From: an uncultured Chthonomonadaceae bacterium
GTDB taxonomy: Bacteria; Armatimonadota; Chthonomonadetes; Chthonomonadales; Chthonomonadaceae
Length of the DNA: 64,000 bases
Direction: 5' to 3'
Assembly: GCA_963817895.1 (NCBI GenBank)
Contig: CAWFQB010000006.1
Coordinates: 192,001-256,000, forward strand
The notes beneath the pieces are model-generated. The model did no database searches and had not been told where the DNA came from. It saw only the letters and a program-made list of their open reading frames with translations. This document shows, piece by piece, positions 4,962-63,710 of the stretch (the first letter of the stretch is position 1; each line of letters opens with the position of its first letter). Both the position numbers and the translations under genes were made by a program.

Positions 4962-5083
4962 TTAGCCGCAAATACACGCGAATACACGCAAATGCAATGC
5001 TGCGATGAAACAGTCAGGCGGAACGCGATTACATAGCAATTAAGTGTCTTTATTTGCGTCCATTCGCGTGTATTTGCGGCTAA
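4962..5083. repeat. Intergenic inverted repeat with 9-bp periodic arms (32-bp arms, 2 mismatches)
   Basis: ttagccgcaaatacacgcgaatacacgcaaat (4962-4993) and atttgcgtccattcgcgtgtatttgcggctaa (5052-5083). Confidence 0.9.
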
Positions 5084-8117: not shown

Positions 8118-8135
8118 GGTCACTCCGAGGAAGAT

Positions 8136-8247
8136 AGGAAGATAGGAGATACGAGATACGCGTTGGCAGACAGTTTACAGCAATTTCCGTCTTGAAAACG
8201 AATTTGAGTTCAAGTTACCACTCGTATCTCGTATCTCCTATCTTCCT
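8136..8247. repeat. Inverted repeat with 7-bp periodic arms (GAGATAG/GAGATAC), perfect 25-bp arms
   Basis: aggaagataggagatacgagatacg (8136-8160) and its reverse complement (8223-8247); overlaps the stop codon of the Mo subunit. Confidence 0.9.
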
Positions 8248-10546
8248 AAAGCAGCTTATCCGGCGTAATCGGCAGGTCGCGGATGCGCTTGCCGGTCGCG
8301 TGGAAAATGGCGTTGGCAATGGCGGCGGGCGCCGCCTGTAATGCCGATTTCGCCGATGCCTTTCACGCCGATAGGGTTGACATGCGGATCGTTTTCCTGC
8401 CACGAAAAAGGCGTCTATTTGCGGCACGTCGGCGTTGACGGGAACATGGTACTCGGCGAGATCGCGGTTCATCACGCGGCCCATACGCGGGTCCATAACG
8501 GCTGCCTCCTGCAGCGCCATGCCGATAGCCCATACCATGCCGCCCATGATTTGCGAATGCGCGGTTTTGGCGTTTAAGAATGCGTCCGGCGGCAAACGCG
8601 CCCACCATGCGGGCAATACGCGCTTCCCCGGAACTGGGATTTACATGCACTTCCGCAAACTGCGCCCCGAACGCATGGGAAGAATACTCTTTCTTCTCTT
8701 CGCCGGGTTTCGCGCTGCTTTCCGCCGTCAGCATCTCTCTGTTATTACGTTTCAGCAGGTCGGCGTAGGTTTCGCCCTGCGCAGGCGCGTTTTTGCGGAA
8801 CAAGCGTCCGTTTTCGCTGCCAATCTGATCTTCGGTCAGGCCGTGCAGGGGCGAGGCCGCGTCCGCCAGTCGCCAGTTGAATGGCCTGTTTGCGGGCTTC
8901 CATCGCCGCCGCTTTCACTGCCGAACCGACGCTTGCCGCCGTTTGCGAACCGCCCGAAACCGGAGCCTGCGGCAACCGCGTGTCGCCCAATTCAAAGTGG
9001 ACTTTCTCCACAGGGATACCTAATACCTCTGCGGCCACCTGCGTCATGACCGTGTACGTGCCCGTTCCCAAATCCTGCGTGCCGCTGAAGGCCCGCGCCC
9101 GTCCGTCCGCCATAATTTCTATGCGAACATGCGCTTCGCCCCGGTTGGCGGGATACGTGGCGGTCGCCATGCCGTAGCCGATAAGCCAGCCGTCCTCGGT
9201 TTTCATGGAGCCGATTTTCGGATCGCGCTTGCTCCAGCCGAAACGCTCCGCGCCCTGCCGGTAACACTCGCGCAGTTCCTTGCTCGACCAGGGCAGATTT
9301 GGTGCGGGTCCGTTTCGGCATAGTTGCGCAGGCGCAGTTCCAGCGGGTCCATATTGAGCGCGTACGCCAGTTCGTCCATCGCGGATTCCAGCGCGAAGCA
9401 TCCGGGCGCTTCTCCCGGGGCGCGCGGTACTCGTCGGCGTCCCTTTGTTGATGCGAACCAGTTTGTGCGTTGCCTGCACATTGGGGCAGGCGTACAGATA
9501 TGGGCGCGACAACGCCGCATTTTTCCGTGAACTCATCATACGGCGACGTGTTGTTGGTGGTGGTATGAATGATGCTTTGCAGCCTGCCATCTCGATCGGC
9601 GCCAATCGCCACGCGCTGCAAGGTCTGCGCCCGATACCCCACCGATGGTAAACATCTGCTGCCGCGTCAGTTCCAGCTTGACCGGGCGGCCCACTTTGCG
9701 CGCGGCAATCGCGGACAAAATAACGTGCGGCCATGTAAACCCCTTGCAGCCAAACCCGCCGCCCACGAAATAGCAGACGGTTCGCACATTCTCTTTCGGG
9801 ATGCCCAGAATCTTCGCCGTCACGTTCGCCGCGCCCGACACCCACTGCGTGGCGTCGTAAAGGGTCAGTTTGTCGCCCTCCCATACCGCGATGGTAGCCG
9901 AGGGTTCTATGGGGTTGTGGTTTTCAACTGGCGTTCGGTACAGTTTGTCCACCTTCACCGGGGACAGCGCGAGTGCCACTTCCGCGTCGCCGCGCTTGCT
10001 GTCGTTGGGTTCGCGGCCCGCATCCTGGGGCGCTTTAATGGCCTCGTGCAGATGCCGCTCCATCTCCGTCTTTGGCGGCTCCTGCTGATATTGCACCTTC
10101 ACCCGACTGGCCGCGTACCGGGCCTGCTCGTACGTTTCCGCCACCACAACGCCGATATGCTGGCCGCTGTAGTAGATGGTGGCGTCCTGCAAGGGCAGCA
10201 GTTTTTGACCGGGCTTGCCGGGGTTTTCCTGCCCCTGCTGCTGCTGCGCGTCTTCAGGCTTGCTTTTCGGGTCGGGAGAGGGGAACTGATTCAGTTTGGG
10301 CGCGTTCAAATGCGTAATAATGCTCAGGACGCCGGGCAGCCGTTCCGCCTCACCGGTATCAATGCTGACGATACTGCCCCGCGCAATCGTACTCTCAATG
10401 ATAACCGCGCGCGCCAGATTGGGCAGGTCGAATTCCGCCGCATAGGGCGCGGTTCCCGTGACTTTCTGCCGCCCGTCAATGCGGTTGAGCGGCTTGCCCA
10501 CGATTTGCTCACCCAGGCTGTTGTTTTCTATTGTATCAAGTTTCAT
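8246..10546 (-). CDS. Xanthine dehydrogenase family molybdopterin-binding subunit (YagR/PaoC-like), several frameshifts
   Basis: RIDGRQKVTGTAPYAAE, VGGGFGCKG, APGEAPGCFALESAMDELA, QDLGTGTYT, VSGGSQTAASVG, QIMGGMVWAIGMAL. Confidence 0.92.
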
Positions 10547-30132: not shown

Positions 30133-30252
30133 GTGTCAGGTGTCAGGTGTCAGGTGTCAGGAAGAGTTGCTGCCTGCCTCAAATTGATACCTTGCATGGA
30201 GGGCGCGGAAGTGGTTCTTTTCTGACACCTGACACCTGACACCTGACACCTG
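30133..30252. repeat. Inverted repeat with (GTGTCAG)4 / (CTGACAC)4 arms between dnaJ and hspR
   Basis: 30133-30161 and 30222-30252. Confidence 0.92.
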
Positions 30253-35836: not shown

Positions 35837-35938
35837 TTGATAGGTGATAGTTGATAGTTCCTGACTGTCAGACTTGCCTGTTAAAATACAGCAAGGTGCG
35901 CAGGCGAGTGCATTGGCTTATCAACTATCAACTATCAA
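35837..35938. repeat. Inverted repeat with TTGATAG / CTATCAA heptamer arms
   Basis: 35837-35859 and 35919-35938; contains the stop codon of the Gfo/Idh/MocA gene. Confidence 0.85.
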
Positions 35939-43293: not shown

Positions 43294-43398
43294 TTGTCTT
43301 GAACCATGATTAGGCATGATTTCGATGATTACCATGATTTCAGCACACGCTCCCTCATGGTAATCAAAATAATCATGTCTAATCATGGTTCAAGACAA
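43294..43398. repeat. Inverted repeat with 44-bp, 9-bp-periodic (CATGATT) arms
   Basis: ttgtcttgaaccatgattaggcatgatt... (43294-43337) and ...aatcatgtctaatcatggttcaagacaa (43355-43398). Confidence 0.9.
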
Positions 43399-45556: not shown

Positions 45557-46027
<471 letters not shown>

Positions 46028-46028
<1 letters not shown>

Positions 46029-46144
46029 AAAAGGAGAAAAGGAGAAGAGGAGAAAAGGAGAGGAATTTTTAATCTCCAGTCCCTTTTCGTTTATTTCGTG
46101 TATTTAGCGGTTCCCATTCTCCTCTTCTCCTTTTCTCCTTTTCT
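46028..46144. repeat. Inverted repeat with 8-bp periodic arms (GGAGAAAA / TTTTCTCC)
   Basis: gaaaaggagaaaaggagaagaggagaa and ttctcctcttctccttttctccttttc. Confidence 0.88.
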
Positions 46145-46251: not shown

Positions 46252-47739
46252 GTGTCCCGCAGGTATCCTGTAAAAATTTTGGTCGGTCTGTCGGCGCGCT
46301 GCTGGCCGCTGATGGGCGTTCTCAGCATGGCTTCGGTTGTCGCGGCGCGGGCGCAGGAGGATGCAGACCCAAAAAAGCCGGTTGTATCTCAACAGGACAG
46401 CGCGGACAAGCAGGACAAGGGCGATCCGCTGCTTGCGCCCAATGCGCGGGCTGTCGTATCCGCTGTCAACTTTCACTCGCGCCCCAAAGTGGTGTCGGAA
46501 GCGCAGCGTCCTCGCCGCACGGTGCAGCTAGACGGGAAAATCAGTGAGGGCGAATGGGATTTGTTCTATTCCGTCGCGGAGGGGCCAGTAAAAGGGAGCA
46601 TTTACTGCAACTGGGATGACAACTACCTGTATCTGGCCGCGAAAACGGACGGCCCTGCCACCCTCGTCTTTGATATAGACGCCAGTAATGACGGCTGGCT
46701 GCGCGGCTCGGATAATCTGGAAGTGGTAGTCGGGAGTGTGACGGAGGGCGGGCAGCCGTCCGTTACCGCCCGTCTGCTGGACGCTTCCAACAGCAAGGAA
46801 ACCCCCTCATGGGCAGACCGTTCCGCCGATGCCAAACAGATTCAGGTGGCGAGTAAAATGGAGAATGGCGGGCAGGTCGTGGAGATTGCTATTCCCAAAA
46901 GCATGGGCAGTCTGGTCATGCGTCCCGGCGCGAATATCGGGCTGCGCGGCGAGTTTTTGCCGCCCGGCGACGCGAGCGCGTACATGCCGACCGCGCCGTT
47001 TGAACCGCATCTGCTGCTGGACGCGACCCTAGTGGAAGCGCGTCAACTCTCTGCGTCGGGCATCAACCCCAATCTGACCCTTTCCGATAAAAAGTGCGTC
47101 CCCGGCCAGAAACTGTTCGCCACAATGGAGTTGTACAATCAGACCGATGTTCCCATGCCCATCAAAGCCGTGCAGTGGGGCGGCACAACGGGTTCGGTAA
47201 ATGCCGTCAACAGCGTCCGCCGCGTCGCCGTTCCTCCGGTTGGCCCGATGCGCCGCCTGAGACTGGCCTACGAAACCCTGCTTCCCGCCGACCTGCCGCC
47301 TGGAACGTATACCCTACAGGTAACAGTGGATTTGGACAACGGCAAGCAGATACAGTCTTCCACGTCGTTTACGGTTGTGGAACCCTTGCAGCCGCAAATG
47401 TCCACGCAGCCCGACCCGGTGACAGTCGTTGGCCCCACCACGTTTGCGGTTGTCGTAGACGTGTACAATGCCAACCCCGGCCAGATGAACTGCGAGGTTG
47501 ACCTGCTGACCATTCCGCCCGGTTGGGAACTCGTAGACAACAGGCGCACCAAACTGCCCCTGACCGTCGAGAAAGAGGACGGTCACGCGAGCCGCCAGTT
47601 CGTGTTTAAACTGCCCTCCACCACGCCTGCGGGCGATTACCCGCTGGATGCCACCGTCACCTGGCACAAGCGCGTATGGAAACTGCATACCATTGCCCAC
47701 GTCCTGCGCCCGGAACCGGTAGTTCCGAAGAGTCCATAG
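46252..47739 (+). CDS. Secreted hypothetical protein (CBM9/DOMON-like N-domain plus Ig-like domains)
   Basis: Signal peptide; VQLDGKISEGEW, NWDDNYLYLA, VVEIAIPK; two PxGxY Ig-like strands. Confidence 0.65.
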   Translation: MSRRYPVKILVGLSARCWPLMGVLSMASVVAARAQEDADPKKPVVSQQDSADKQDKGDPLLAPNARAVVSAVNFHSRPKVVSEAQRPRRTVQLDGKISEGEWDLFYSVAEGPVKGSIYCNWDDNYLYLAAKTDGPATLVFDIDASNDGWLRGSDNLEVVVGSVTEGGQPSVTARLLDASNSKETPSWADRSADAKQIQVASKMENGGQVVEIAIPKSMGSLVMRPGANIGLRGEFLPPGDASAYMPTAPFEPHLLLDATLVEARQLSASGINPNLTLSDKKCVPGQKLFATMELYNQTDVPMPIKAVQWGGTTGSVNAVNSVRRVAVPPVGPMRRLRLAYETLLPADLPPGTYTLQVTVDLDNGKQIQSSTSFTVVEPLQPQMSTQPDPVTVVGPTTFAVVVDVYNANPGQMNCEVDLLTIPPGWELVDNRRTKLPLTVEKEDGHASRQFVFKLPSTTPAGDYPLDATVTWHKRVWKLHTIAHVLRPEPVVPKSP

Positions 47740-47834
47740 TTGATAGTTGATAGTTGATAGCACAATGCGTCAGTCTCCTCTGGCAGAAACGTCAGGCAAT
47801 CAACTATCAAGTATCAACTATCAACTATCAACTA
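47736..47834. repeat. Inverted repeat with TTGATAG / CTATCAA heptamer arms spanning stop to start
   Basis: atagttgatagttgatagttgatag (contains the TAG stop) and atcaactatcaagtatcaactatcaactatcaact-ATG. Confidence 0.9.
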
Positions 47835-48790
47835 TGAACCTAGCCATTGAAACCCAGAACCTGAGCAAGACCTACAAACACTTTACCGCCGTGCGGCATC
47901 TTAATTTGGCTGTGCCGCAGGGCGAGGTGTTTGGTTTTCTCGGCCCCAACGGAGCCGGTAAAACCACCACGATTATGATGCTGTTGGGCAACATACGCCC
48001 GACAAACGGCACGGCCATGCTGCTCGGCAAACCGGTCGGGGACGTGCAAACGCGGCGCAAAGTGGGATTTCTGCCCGAAAAATTCCAGTTCCACGAGTTT
48101 CTCACCGCTACGGAGTTTCTGCATCTGCACGGCAAACTTAACGGCATGAGCCGGGAACAGCGCAATCGCCGCATCCCCCTCGTGCTGGCGCGAGTGGGGC
48201 TGGCGGATCGCGCCAACAGCCGGATACGCGAATTTTCTAAGGGGATGCAGCAGCGCGTGGGATTGGCGCAGGCCATTCTGCACGAGCCGGATGTGGTGAT
48301 ACTGGATGAGCCGACAAGCGCGCTCGATCCTATCGGACGGCGGGACGTGCGCGACATCGTTATGGAATTGCGCGGGCAGGGCAAAACGGTCCTGCTCAAC
48401 TCGCATCTGCTGTCGGAAATCGAAATGACGTGCGACCGTGTTGCCATTATCAAGCGGGGCGAGGTGGCGGCGCAGGGGACGATGGACGAACTGCTTGGAT
48501 TCGCGTCCAGCGTCGAGATCGAAGTGCGTGATATGAATGACGCGGCAATGAACGCCGTCCGGCAAATCGCGTCCAAACTGAAGATCGGACGGGTTCCCAT
48601 TACGCGTTTTACCGCATGGGTGCGGGCGGAAGAGGATGTTCCCGAACTGGCCCGCGCCTTAGTGCAAAATGGCGCGAAACTGCTGGCTCTGGTTCCGCAG
48701 CGCGAAACGCTGGAACAACTGTTTGTCCGCATCATCGAAGGCAGCGTAGAACCCGGCGTAGAGGCTGTTCCAGCCATACTTGAGAAATAG
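47834..48790 (+). CDS. ABC transporter ATP-binding protein (ABC-2 type)
   Basis: GPNGAGKTT, FSKGMQQR, ILDEP, NSH. Confidence 0.95.
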   Translation: MNLAIETQNLSKTYKHFTAVRHLNLAVPQGEVFGFLGPNGAGKTTTIMMLLGNIRPTNGTAMLLGKPVGDVQTRRKVGFLPEKFQFHEFLTATEFLHLHGKLNGMSREQRNRRIPLVLARVGLADRANSRIREFSKGMQQRVGLAQAILHEPDVVILDEPTSALDPIGRRDVRDIVMELRGQGKTVLLNSHLLSEIEMTCDRVAIIKRGEVAAQGTMDELLGFASSVEIEVRDMNDAAMNAVRQIASKLKIGRVPITRFTAWVRAEEDVPELARALVQNGAKLLALVPQRETLEQLFVRIIEGSVEPGVEAVPAILEK

Positions 48791-59352: not shown

Positions 59353-59850
59353 CTATGCTTCGTCCTTATCGTTAAGAAGTTTTTGCAGTTCGAGCAGTTC
59401 CAGAATGTGCGCCTGATCTTTGGGGCGGTTGGCGGCGCGTTTCATGGAAAGCAGGTCAGGAATGGAAGCGACATGAACCGCAATGCTTTCCACTTCCATT
59501 ACGACAGACCGCTCCCATAAACCGTCAAACGATTCTGTCCCGGCGGCTTCGCCAAGTATGTCCACATCGCCAATACTCATTGTGAGCGTGAAGTTCAGCC
59601 CTGACTTGAGCGTTCGCGCATCCCACAAGAATGGCAAATCAGGAGGAACGCCGCGCAATCGTGGCTTGTAAGGCGCGAAAGCGGACGCTAATGTCGTTAA
59701 GTTCGCCGGGTCACGCGCATAACAGATGTCAAGATCGTCCGTAAGGTGGGCGCAGCCGTGCAGACGCATCGCCACGCCGCCAATCAGCACGTACCGAACA
59801 TTTTGCGCGTTGAGTACGTTGAGAATGTGCAGAATCTCATCAAGTTCCAC
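59353..59850 (-). CDS. Nucleotidyltransferase-family protein (DUF6036/AbiEii-like)
   Basis: YVLIGGVAMRLHG...TDDLDI, DLLSMKRAANRPKD. Confidence 0.8.
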   Translation of the reverse strand: MELDEILHILNVLNAQNVRYVLIGGVAMRLHGCAHLTDDLDICYARDPANLTTLASAFAPYKPRLRGVPPDLPFLWDARTLKSGLNFTLTMSIGDVDILGEAAGTESFDGLWERSVVMEVESIAVHVASIPDLLSMKRAANRPKDQAHILELLELQKLLNDKDEA

Positions 59851-60067
59851 TATTCCGTCCTCCTGTTAGAACCGCGCTACGTCGAAACATTTTTCTCAAT
59901 CGTTCTGTTGGCGTGAGTTTCAGATTGGCGCGAAGAAGGGAAATGTCTACGCCGCTTTCGGATTGTTCGCCAAAGCCGCGCGTGAACGCCTGAAACTGCT
60001 CCCACTGCTCCGGCGTCATGCCAAGTCTGTCTTCCGGTTCCTCTACCTCTGTTTGCGAATCGCTCAT
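59840..60067 (-). CDS. Small partner of the nucleotidyltransferase (putative antitoxin)
   Basis: GVDISLLRANLKLTPTERLR; overlaps the start of the NTase gene. Confidence 0.65.
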   Translation of the reverse strand: MSDSQTEVEEPEDRLGMTPEQWEQFQAFTRGFGEQSESGVDISLLRANLKLTPTERLRKMFRRSAVLTGGRNSGT

Positions 60068-60081
60068 GATTGATTTGCCTC

Positions 60082-60525
60082 TTATACCTGCGTGTCCTGA
60101 TTGTAGGCGATGCGAAGGCGCGTGAGGAACAGCGGGTTCAGATGGTCGAAATCCGCGTCCGTTGTCAGCAGCCTGAAATTTGATACGCTGGCGACAGCCG
60201 CAATCCATAAATCATTCTTGCCCATTATGATGCCTCTCCTGTGACTGTACTCATCAATGGATGCGTAGGCCGTGTAAATTTCCGGCGTTTCTATCGAGTA
60301 GGGAATAAAGTAGCTGAGCATAAAGAGCATCTGCTTCACTCTGTCACGCCCCCAATTATTTGTGTTGGCAAATGAACGAATTTCGCCGTTTGTCACCGTA
60401 CAATAGCCGGGTCTAACTTCGGTCATAAATGGGTCAAACTCTGTTTTGATGCGCAGTCCGGTATAATTGCCACGAATCAAATGTACAAAAATGTTTGTGT
60501 CCATTATATCAGCGTTTGGAACCAT
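60082..60525 (-). CDS. PIN-domain (VapC-type) toxin
   Basis: IMDTNIFVH, T.GE, MGKNDLWIAA, LLTTDADFDHL. Confidence 0.88.
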   Translation of the reverse strand: MVPNADIMDTNIFVHLIRGNYTGLRIKTEFDPFMTEVRPGYCTVTNGEIRSFANTNNWGRDRVKQMLFMLSYFIPYSIETPEIYTAYASIDEYSHRRGIIMGKNDLWIAAVASVSNFRLLTTDADFDHLNPLFLTRLRIAYNQDTQV

Positions 60526-60527
60526 CG

Positions 60528-60875
60528 TCAGGACATCTCCTTTAGTATCGCGATGACTTCTTCGTCCGTAAGGTTGTCGCGCAATTTGCCGAAGACCATG
60601 TCGGCCAGTGTTTTACCGGGTGGTAAAGGGCGCGGCGGCGGCGCGGATGCCAGAGCGCGGCAACGCGCTTCAGCAAGTTGCTCCGGGGTTCGGTTCGTGA
60701 GGCGGGCCAACGTTTCTTCGTAGTAGCTCGGCTCCGACCACGCATACAGGTGCAATCTTTCAAGAGTGCCTTCCAGCATATCGTGGGCGCAATCAGCGAC
60801 GCTCAATCCGCTCTCCTGCGCCAACCCCTCCAATTTTCGCTGCATTTCCTCCGAAACGGTAACGGTAATTTCCAT
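60528..60875 (-). CDS. Putative antitoxin (RHH-like N-terminus)
   Basis: MEITVTVSEEMQRKLEGLAQESGLS; directly upstream of the PIN gene. Confidence 0.65.
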   Translation of the reverse strand: MEITVTVSEEMQRKLEGLAQESGLSVADCAHDMLEGTLERLHLYAWSEPSYYEETLARLTNRTPEQLAEARCRALASAPPPRPLPPGKTLADMVFGKLRDNLTDEEVIAILKEMS

Positions 60876-61041
60876 CGGATACCTCCTCATCTCTGCCGAA
60901 CGGTCAGGCAGGGCAATTGTTCGCTGCCGTTGGCGTAAATCACGTTGCTCATGCTTCTATTATACTCCGGTTTATGGGCAGTGTTCCTTTGCGCTGTCAA
61001 CGCGCCTGCAACAAATCCGCTTTCTTGTGTTCCAACAGGGT

Positions 61042-62407
<1,366 letters not shown>

Positions 62408-62409
<2 letters not shown>

Positions 62410-62909
62410 CCACGGGGGACACGGGGAACACGGGGGAGGAAAGGGGAAGAAAATATGGGGAACAACACTGAGAACGAAGAACTGGTGGATTGTGAGAATG
62501 AATTGATTTCCAGAGTGTTGGATGCGGCTACGGTTGTGCATCGGCAACTTGGACCGGGGTTGTTGGAGTCAGTTTATGAATTGGCGCTCATGGTAGAACT
62601 GAAAGCTATGGGGATTGCGGCGCAGAAAGAAGTGGAAGTTCCGGTTTACTATCGCGGGCAGTGCCTCGGCACAGGTTTTCGCGCCGACATCATCGTGGAA
62701 AACTGCCTCTTGCTGGAATTAAAGGCTGTTGACGAGTTGAACGCCGTTCATCAGGCGCAAATCATGACCTACCTCAAACTGCTGAAGTTCAAGCGTGGCT
62801 ACCTGTTAAACTTTAATCGCGTCTTAATGAAGGAGGGCATCAAACGTGTTTCCATCTAATTTTTTATCCCTCCCCTCTCCCCCCCGTGTTCCCCGTGTCC
62901 CCCGTGGTT
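62408..62909. mobile_element. Putative mobile cassette: GxxExxY gene between perfect 29-bp inverted repeats
   Basis: aaccacgggggacacggggaacacggggg (62408-62436) and its exact reverse complement (62881-62909); mobility is inferred. Confidence 0.6.
62455..62859 (+). CDS. GxxExxY protein (PD-(D/E)XK nuclease-like)
   Basis: VHRQLGPGLLESVYE, FRADIIVE..LLLELKAV, AQIMTYLK, GYLLNF. Confidence 0.95.
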   Translation: MGNNTENEELVDCENELISRVLDAATVVHRQLGPGLLESVYELALMVELKAMGIAAQKEVEVPVYYRGQCLGTGFRADIIVENCLLLELKAVDELNAVHQAQIMTYLKLLKFKRGYLLNFNRVLMKEGIKRVSI

Positions 62910-63649
62910 TAATCCTCCTCTGCCTACTATGGTGCGGCGTGGTTGTCCGGGCCGATGTCAAGCCGGAAATAAAATCCCGTTCCGTCCCCTACGTGGTGGT
63001 CGGCAAGCCGGTCACGATTACGTTTTATGGCGAGAATTTGACGCCCAGGGAAGTAAAAGCGAATAAGCCGGGTGTCACCGTAAAATTGGGCGCGATGAAG
63101 GCGACAGAGGGGGACGACAAGAAAAAAGGCCGTCAGAAGGTAGACGTGGAAGTGACAACGATGCTGACATGCCCACCCGAAAACGTAGAATTGACCTTCA
63201 CGCAGCCGGACGGCGGCAAGGTGGCAGCGCAAATTCCACTCGTGGACAGCGCGGCAACCGAAGTAAAAGAGAAAAAGCCGAGCGGCACGTTTGCGCAGGC
63301 AATGCCGTTAATCCTGACATCTGATTCTTCTCTGGCTGTCACCGGGAACGTGGAGAATGACACGCCCTCCACATTCAAGTTCGAGGCGAAGGCGGGCGAG
63401 GTTTGGATGTTTCGCGTGTTTGCGGGGCGGGGCGACTCGACGCTTGATCCCGTCGTCAGAATTCGGGACAGGAGGCATATCTCGCTGACGCTTGCGGTCG
63501 GGGACGCCAAGAAAGACCGCCAAATCGTTTTTACGGTTCCCGGATCAGGAACCTACTATCTGGAAATCATGGATGAGCAGAGTCGCGGCGGCGGCGGTTT
63601 CACGTATCGGCTTACAGTGCAGCAAGGAAAGGCTACGCCAAAGCAGTAA
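62846..63649 (+). CDS. Secreted PPC (pre-peptidase C-terminal) domain protein
   Basis: Hydrophobic signal region; FKFEAKAGE, STLDPVVRI, FTVPGSGTYYLEI, GGGFTYRL. Confidence 0.75.
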   Translation: MFPSNFLSLPSPPRVPRVPRGLILLCLLWCGVVVRADVKPEIKSRSVPYVVVGKPVTITFYGENLTPREVKANKPGVTVKLGAMKATEGDDKKKGRQKVDVEVTTMLTCPPENVELTFTQPDGGKVAAQIPLVDSAATEVKEKKPSGTFAQAMPLILTSDSSLAVTGNVENDTPSTFKFEAKAGEVWMFRVFAGRGDSTLDPVVRIRDRRHISLTLAVGDAKKDRQIVFTVPGSGTYYLEIMDEQSRGGGGFTYRLTVQQGKATPKQ

Positions 63650-63710
63650 TACGCTGTGATGAGCAGAGTATTACTGCCAGCAAACTTTGCTTCGTACAGA
63701 TGCATCCTGC

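Follow-up and report, generated by a model that had tools for sequence, protein, structure and literature searches.

MITEs and TTAA-targeting transposons have terminal inverted repeats and occur as filled and empty sites, and the REP sequences of E. coli act within 15 nt of stop codons. In the accessible text of its report, a class of G-rich heptamer repeats from Xanthomonas and Nostoc forms convergent, inverted tandem pairs between aligned ORFs, near or overlapping the stop codons (PMC4692102). The available sections on Coxiella burnetii's 23S rRNA intervening sequence (IVS) describe a stem of 28 bp, tandem heptamer repeats, and a small ORF, with RNase III cutting at the first repeat (PMC4990558). 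The PDDEXK_3/GxxExxY proteins are widespread and, in the part of the source at hand, are listed as a family of unknown function (PMC3424549). In the literature searched, which covered few subscription journals, the name GxxExxY occurs in passing among the mentions listed, and no paper turned up that describes repeats next to GxxExxY genes. The nuclease-plus-repeat system described here is real and widespread, and apparently unpublished.

The focal locus lies in a window of 64,000 nt, the whole stretch of DNA that was analysed, and the genome holding it (G000) is an 81%-complete assembly. Here a GxxExxY gene is packaged in a cassette of 502 bp between two 29-nt arms that are exact reverse complements (Table 1). 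Their match does not extend outward, and their complementarity reaches 38 nt inward at 89%. By its sequence, each arm consists of purine-rich 9-mers in tandem, pairs with its partner only, and is not itself palindromic; the purine-rich tail of the left arm runs to 62454. The coordinates confirm two claims of an earlier, sequence-only reading of this DNA, namely that exact 29-bp inverted repeats of ~9-bp units bracket a 134-residue GxxExxY gene and that the left arm overlaps the stop codon of the WD40 gene. That reading also placed the right arm in the frame of a downstream PPC gene; the frame is as described, but the PPC identity is weak (PF04151 E = 0.043, below the cut-off). As RNA, the 531-nt region folds at z = -6.19, with 0 of 100 shuffles as good, and inverted 14-mer seeds at most 800 nt apart number 130 in the window and 0 to 8 in 20 shuffles. 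An Rfam search returned nothing meaningful (a single match, E = 3.1).

Table 1. Features of the focal cassette and its surroundings (window positions).
Feature	Position	Strand	Remarks
Upstream WD40-repeat gene	61042..62409	+	TAA stop (62407-62409) forms the left arm's outer edge
Gene-less sister element	61425..61495	+	Mismatched 7-mer halves (AGGGAAG-type, then CTCAACT-type), in frame within the linker of the WD40 gene
Left arm	62408..62436	+	Three CAC-GGGG units of 9 nt each, fully complementary to the right arm
GxxExxY gene, 134 aa	62455..62859	+	Predicted minimal RecB/Cas4-type PD-(D/E)XK nuclease
Likely restart signal in the last codons of the GxxExxY gene	62830..62848	+	SD-like AAGGAGG 62830-62836, 9 nt, GTG 62846-62848
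Downstream ORF, predicted secreted PPC-like protein	62846..63649	+	LILLCLLWC hydrophobic stretch from 62909, straight after the arm
Right arm	62881..62909	+	PRVPRVPRG in the frame of the downstream ORF

The TTAA noted earlier at the cassette ends is present (62406-62409 and 62909-62912), but neither its conservation nor a role as target duplication held up. It lies within 5 nt of 17 of 54 focal-type arms in G000 and of 7 of 34 in 2 Mb of a relative, G002, and neither end of the orthologous cassette has it in G002 or in G015. A target duplication of TTAA was rejected, since TTAA is unconserved at arms and direct repeats stand at the null level genome-wide. Two other features of the neighborhood may be recorded. 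A 14-bp non-periodic hairpin at 63643-63677 (window 63637-63684) spans the stop codon of the downstream gene and is probably a terminator. Just upstream of the operon, on the minus strand at 59353-60890, lie four small genes that by eye form nucleotidyltransferase / PIN-domain / antitoxin-like pairs.

The protein encoded between the arms is a member of the GxxExxY / PDDEXK_3 family, with 138.6 bits against TIGR04256 (cut-off 35) and 140.8 bits against PF13366 (cut-off 22). A structure model built from a 111-sequence alignment has a pLDDT of 92.7, compared with only 41.8 for a single-sequence prediction. In this alignment D78 is invariant and E38, E88, K90, Q102, and Y106 are at least 90% conserved. 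Together they form a catalytic-type residue set (E38, D78, E88-x-K90, and Q102-xxx-Y106), a pattern which we take to be the RecB-type motif set. The top Foldseek match, and the sole one below E 0.001, is Cas4 SSO0001 (E = 5.7e-4). In VIA-align, SSO0001 and an uncharacterised restriction-fold protein both reach Z 7.4 and Hjc reaches 6.0, with none at Z 8. A search of the PDB by sequence and profile gave no match to the focal protein; the structure model contains no separate DNA-reading domain, and the cassette no DDE, HUH, or recombinase domain. Fold model, residue conservation, and profile scores agree on the PD-(D/E)XK nuclease identity predicted in the sequence-only reading, and from the model the protein is predicted to be a minimal RecB/Cas4-type nuclease.

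The focal protein is under purifying selection (pN 0.10 and pS 0.75 against G002). It is 87% identical in G002, and because this matches the 85-87% identity of its neighbors, the cassette looks like an old resident here. Synonymous divergence of the focal gene from G002 is high (0.52, with 3 of 504 matched windows as high); since that of a second orthologous GxxExxY gene is ordinary (0.29), general hypermutation between arms is not claimed. GxxExxY genes occur in 94 of 251 genomes of a phylum sample. In G001 (C2:2993794-2995406, L227/L233), a GxxExxY gene is split by an apparent IS3-type transposase, identified by eye.

Flanking inverted repeats are strongly enriched at GxxExxY loci of relatives, of a pooled set, and of metagenomes. 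A flanking inverted-repeat score of at least 14 was reached by 21 of the 30 best GxxExxY loci of relatives and by 4 of 300 size-matched control genes, one of these four being itself a GxxExxY gene. After 6 of 113 pooled loci were dropped for short flanks, such repeats were found at 80 of 107, compared with 4 of 200 mismatched flank pairs; in metagenomes (9 of 80 loci dropped) the counts were 47 of 71 and 11 of 200. Arm similarity rises with protein identity (Mantel rho 0.26, 0 of 999 permutations as high; 66 loci scoring at least 17), a trend that co-inheritance alone can yield.

The focal protein belongs to a four-member clade (100% support in a quick tree), one member being from an Acidobacterium, and the loci of this clade have CAC-R-G-R-G arms in common. 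This clade and its arm type precede unrelated genes in other families and phyla. Kin are not independent in these comparisons, the clade being drawn from about six genera or phyla, and many of the surveyed genomes are incomplete. The clade (at least 70% identity) is present in 4 of 61 relatives, with 52 arms in G000, 100 in G002, 119 in G015, and 22 in G056. Just three of the other 57 have at least 5 arms: G001 (29), G023 (17), and G053 (7, of an AGAG variant resembling the arms around its own gene); G001, which is 97% complete, has no clade gene. Within the 251-genome phylum sample, G000 and G074 are the sole genomes with the arm motif and likewise the sole ones with the clade gene. The acidobacterial G061 has a clade gene and 15 arms; arms number 0 in G062-G065, which carry different GxxExxY genes. 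That nuclease clade and arm family are linked is well supported, and because dispersed arms occur mainly in genomes with the clade, the clade gene likely spreads them. This co-occurrence fits an enzyme and a donor template alike, as the cassette could merely seed arms for host enzymes.

Within G000 there are four GxxExxY genes, the other three 36-47% identical to the focal one. All are single-copy, and each lies between its own 9-10-nt-periodic inverted arms. Both four-helix-bundle (TIGR02436) genes of this genome are flanked by 8-mer inverted arms. At these two loci (L061 and L062; G000 C2:440296 and C1:1459269), the arms begin at the stop codons of two convergent neighbors. Two more small genes, at C1:437952-438341 and C5:310805-311194, sit between long non-periodic inverted arms, a possible third pairing of gene and arms; they resemble DUF559/Vsr-like nucleases.

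A de novo scan recovered 474 to 621 periodic-armed inverted pairs, depending on the threshold; 1 Mb of shuffled DNA yielded 0. In G000, gene-less arm pairs that lie directly after stop codons number several hundred. Spacers have a median of 52 nt, and cores most often measure about 50-60 nt. The G-rich strand runs inward in 484 cases vs 28, and most hairpins have 7- or 8-nt periods (495 of 621). Elements lie mainly between co-oriented genes (360 of 474), hairpins occupy roughly one gene junction in ten (389 of 3689), and few elements lie at divergent junctions (8 vs 86 at convergent ones, in G000 and G002). These contexts are approximate because the gene calls come from a home-made codon model. 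Arm families without a stop codon of their own still start within 15 nt after one, in 32 of 49 cases for CACGG and 30 of 42 for CACAGAG. The CACAGAG family has 63 arms in G000, and no cognate gene was found in the 81%-complete assembly. Both 23S rRNA genes of G000 contain a 59-nt heptamer-armed hairpin (L266 and L267; C4:878977-879035 and C14:269489-269547). Besides the sister element in the WD40 gene, the window holds seven gene-less hairpins of other families (4962-5083, 8135-8248, 30133-30249, 35837-35938, 43294-43398, 46027-46144, and 47735-47836), and the site of the last is empty in G002. DGR-like adenine mutagenesis of the cores was not seen, since the motif matrix, judged by eye, varies at C, G, and T as well as A. 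The only RT match in G000 (L063 1288-2718, minus strand, 476 aa) lies beside a SWIM/BRCT-like gene, both labels given by eye; it is about 120 kb from the cassette on the same contig and unlinked.

Comparison of the WD40-PPC junction among relatives revealed the empty sites that the sequence-only reading had suggested looking for. Sixteen loci of relatives strongly match the downstream gene, 15 of them with the WD40 gene upstream, and 12 of these 15 lack the cassette, one of them carrying a gene-less arm pair. The full cassette is found in G002 and G015, where all units of both arms are altered together to CACGGAG or CACAGGG. In G011 the junction holds a gene-less pair of another arm family, read in frame, and the remaining junctions comprise three other longer spacers and nine tight stop/start overlaps. 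The junction of G001, a more distant congener, is tight, and the N-terminus of its downstream protein, MTLRVPHGLLC, looks like one arm unit, so that a cassette may have been lost there. Because empty sites exist and GxxExxY genes are enriched for arms, none of the results that the sequence-only reading had named as contrary to it arose.

The wider turnover of elements was followed between G000 and G002, which are of the same genus (median gene identity 83%, fourfold sites 64.5%; 2 Mb of the 8 Mb of G002 compared). When 133 G000 elements were mapped to G002, 72 sites had another arm family, 16 the same one, 9 were empty, and 36 were uncalled. The reverse mapping of 162 elements gave 73, 16, 32, and 41, respectively, and on inspection most uncalled sites have degenerate or mismatched arms. 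Junction occupancy in the two genomes (59/27/49/302) has an odds ratio of 13.5. Only 1 of 35 orthologous cores scores at least 13, compared with 47% of 49 element-free intergenic stretches; 63%, 20%, and 2% of simulated pairs do so at d = 0.5, 0.7, and 1.0, respectively. As this simulated divergence leaves only a moderate excess over neutral, core replacement is suggestive rather than conclusive. At L035, the G002 orthologue of a second cassette, the left arm is of another family and the right arm and gene are kept. Partner arms average 96.6% identity, a value inflated by the pair-picking procedure, and at least 8 nt of outer flank are in common in 8 of 53 partner arm pairs and 6 of 814 non-partner pairs. 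Stacks of mismatched half-arms were also observed. In 400 kb of the outgroup G001, 9 of 22 elements were mapped and 4 of the 9 are occupied in G000, numbers too small to give events a direction; with a single congener pair compared over 2 of 8 Mb, gains cannot be told from losses. The pattern fits in-place rewriting by conversion better than copy-and-paste, and nested insertion followed by deletion could be an alternative source of part of it.

Transposition of the MITE or REPIN type, in which the protein would excise or copy whole arm-core-arm units into new targets, often existing elements, is improbable on this evidence. It would explain why some orthologous junctions are filled in one genome and empty in the other (9 of 133 and 32 of 162), and the core-length peak and the faint motifs that cores have in common are consistent with it. 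Nesting of elements is known for REPINs, as the available text on them describes (PMC3116915). However, 681 elements give no sign of target duplication (5-mer direct repeats 0.066, null 0.060; k = 4-7 at the null level). None of 248 simple cores in G000 has a neighbor at least 90% identical and only 2 reach 80%; some nested composite elements reach 92% identity. Single-arm swaps, the four single-copy GxxExxY genes, and the lack of DDE, HUH, and recombinase domains also argue against it. The sequence-only reading had proposed a ~500-bp transposase-free mobile unit. The cassette is indeed discrete and transposase-free, and the same clade and arm type stand before unrelated genes elsewhere, but precise excision that restores the downstream gene did not bear scrutiny. 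No excision joints were found in three DNA contig sets with sparse cover.

The gene could instead be conserved cargo, with host slippage, template switching, and ectopic conversion spreading arms for which the cassette is only a source. Template switching is a generic mechanism for arm-to-arm copying, and copying of this kind into unique flank fits it. Arms persist without a clade gene in G001 and G023, and other small genes are also found between inverted arms, including those for the four-helix bundles and the two presumed DUF559-like proteins. Such a passenger role is nevertheless hard to credit, as it leaves unexplained why a catalytically intact nuclease stays between clade-specific arms across phyla. 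The relic MTLRVPHGLLC in G001 likewise suggests a lost cassette and not arms that were always gene-free.

Translation across the cassette bears on whether the arms act in RNA. The GTG of the likely restart signal lies 14 nt ahead of the end of the GxxExxY stop codon (Table 1). In the three filled orthologues (G000, G002, and G015), no ATG occurs between the right arm and the hydrophobic segment, the frame is open back to the GTG, and an SD-like run precedes the GTG by about 9 nt. Joining the flanks had been noted to read like an intact signal-peptide start with no ATG immediately upstream, and it restores an ATG in none of the three. Precise excision, or splicing of an mRNA intervening sequence, that mends the downstream gene is likewise not supported, the conserved SD and GTG within the cassette providing the start instead. 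The signal, with the sequence CGT-GTN, is present at 9 of the 11 clade loci, although among the Arg codons preceding Val in G000 the share of CGT is 6.9% and synonymous sites among clade genes are close to saturation. In G056 the restart ORF crosses the arm and continues into a WD40 gene's signal peptide, and in L165, L174, and L300 into that of alpha-2-macroglobulin-like genes, the one in L174 being frameshifted. In L301 and L302 it ends beside or over the next ATG. The signal is missing in L303 and in G074; in the latter, the following gene is equipped with an SD and an ATG of its own. The restart ORF thus enters three unrelated signal-peptide gene types, as judged by eye and hydropathy, or ends at the next ATG.

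AAGGAGG and GTG are likely a built-in translation restart for the next gene, and the right arm is predicted to supply the downstream signal peptide with its charged n-region. Since the restart frame crosses the right arm into the downstream gene, we infer that ribosomes translate through the arm and that the productive mRNA is uncut. Most downstream genes outside the focal clade retain an ATG of their own. Where elements are gene-less, bridging mini-ORFs do not favor the sense strand (57 vs 55; for SD-less genes, Fisher p = 0.19). A Shine-Dalgarno split across the hairpin (26 of 61, background 18%) was dropped as confounded by G-rich arm starts. At L268 (G056 C15:46500-52000), the reading frame of the next gene runs through a gene-less element of the focal arm family, which separates the start codon from the hydrophobic segment of the predicted signal peptide. 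The internal restart would show how an insertion can seize the start of a secreted-protein gene without killing the gene, and the starts of such genes are prone to mis-annotation.

An RNA-level element, whose transcribed arms pair, whose stem is cut by RNase III, and whose hairpins are kept by hosts for mRNA processing or stability, with the gene as cargo or acting on RNA, is unlikely, if somewhat less so than transposition or a passenger gene. The 29-bp stem folds strongly (z = -6.19) and, by analogy with the Coxiella IVS, which in the accessible description combines tandem heptamers and a small ORF with a 28-bp stem and is cut by RNase III (PMC4990558), it may well be an RNase III substrate. 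The heptamer hairpin in both 23S genes of G000 and the retention of occupied junctions whatever the sequence speak for the same reading. The depletion of divergent junctions and the tie to stop codons, which even stop-less families keep within 15 nt, point to selection on transcripts. Because elements sit after stop codons and in rRNA, transcripts constrain where they survive.

Pairing in RNA, however, should favor G-U on the sense strand, and no excess is seen there (126 vs 136; in a second count, G-U 154 vs A-C 203). Assigning strands by local GC skew also gave no wobble signature (G-T 114 vs A-C 106). Core polarity is 22 sense vs 24 antisense, and core ATGs number 325 vs 325 by strand; all strand tests are symmetric or against RNA pairing. 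Cleavage of the right arm here would part the downstream coding sequence from its sole apparent start, and the tracking of protein clade by arm family would be left unexplained. RNA processing is compatible with the preferred, DNA-level explanation as a consequence of the hairpins rather than as their origin.

That preferred explanation, to which we give about an even chance, is a REP/RAYT-like partnership run by a predicted Cas4/RecB-type nuclease through DNA cut-and-repair of the arms. The mechanism we infer is as follows. The nuclease would act in trans on DNA hairpins formed by the 9-nt arms of its own clade, nicking or resecting the extruded hairpin or cruciform, and would thereby spread and rewrite these arms in the way proposed for RAYT and REPINs. 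Repair would then copy arm and core from another element, and arm from arm, giving conversion-like turnover and occasional new sites. The internal GTG would render an insertion non-polar, and the cassette could therefore persist inside operons. Against a nuclease as the engine, the 7-/8-nt-period arms of G000 flank four-helix-bundle genes, not nucleases. A broader proposal is tentative and on balance doubtful: that GxxExxY proteins are the engines of an unrecognised selfish DNA that rewrites instead of transposing. Its arms would be clade-specific, its hairpins behind stop codons cut and rebuilt from other copies, its junctions cycled through hairpin families, and its cassettes self-neutralised by the restart; a four-helix-bundle version would explain the heptamer hairpins and the 23S IVS.

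With a clade-specific candidate substrate in hand, GxxExxY activity is testable with one 134-residue protein and a 30-bp arm, and a very small sequence-selective hairpin nuclease could serve as a tool. If the nuclease drives the repeats, it would be a second, chemically unrelated route to REP-like genome punctuation, and would tie together heptamer pairs and rRNA IVS, so far described separately.

Among known systems, the accessible accounts of REP/REPIN-RAYT offer the closest parallels: a single-copy nuclease gene flanked by its own repeat family, which is dispersed as inverted doublets, with several gene/repeat families per genome and gene-less doublets that are extragenic and nested (PMC3116915; PMC3733652). 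The cassette enzyme, however, belongs to PF13366 with a PD-(D/E)XK fold, whereas the RAYT is an IS200-like (HUH, Y1) tyrosine transposase. Cassette arms are tandem 9-mers and REPs are internally palindromic; unlike REPINs, the cassette elements have no near-identical cores, undergo single-arm swaps, and carry a translation restart. MITEs and other transposons with terminal inverted repeats differ from the cassette, which has no target duplication, transposase, or near-identical copies.

The cassette protein shares its core fold with Cas4 SSO0001, RecB-type nucleases, and the Hjc resolvase, along with conserved E, D, ExK, and QxxxY residues. Unlike Cas4 SSO0001, the focal protein is of about 120 residues, has no accessory domain in the model, and adjoins no cas operon. 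The similarity to SSO0001 is middling (Z 7.4, rmsd 3.6 A, 99 residues), and fold alone shows no substrate.

The gene-less inverted pairs of tandem repeats at stop codons resemble the heptamer repeats of Xanthomonas and Nostoc, for which the report names no partner gene and its main text contains neither "nuclease" nor "transposase" (PMC4692102). Those repeats, by the same text (PMC4692102), are mostly kept between two species, whereas families are exchanged between G000 and G002. As in the Coxiella IVS, in the sections available, a small ORF lies within a terminal stem of about 28 bp built on tandem short repeats (PMC4990558), and the hairpins in the 23S genes and around both four-helix-bundle genes of G000 extend the likeness. 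Unlike a 23S IVS, the cassette sits in a protein-coding operon rather than an rRNA helix, encodes a predicted nuclease, and has a right arm that is apparently translated. By the features tested, the cassette is a member of neither the REPIN-RAYT, nor the 23S IVS, nor the heptamer-repeat systems, and combines the logic of REPIN-RAYT with the anatomy of the 23S IVS.
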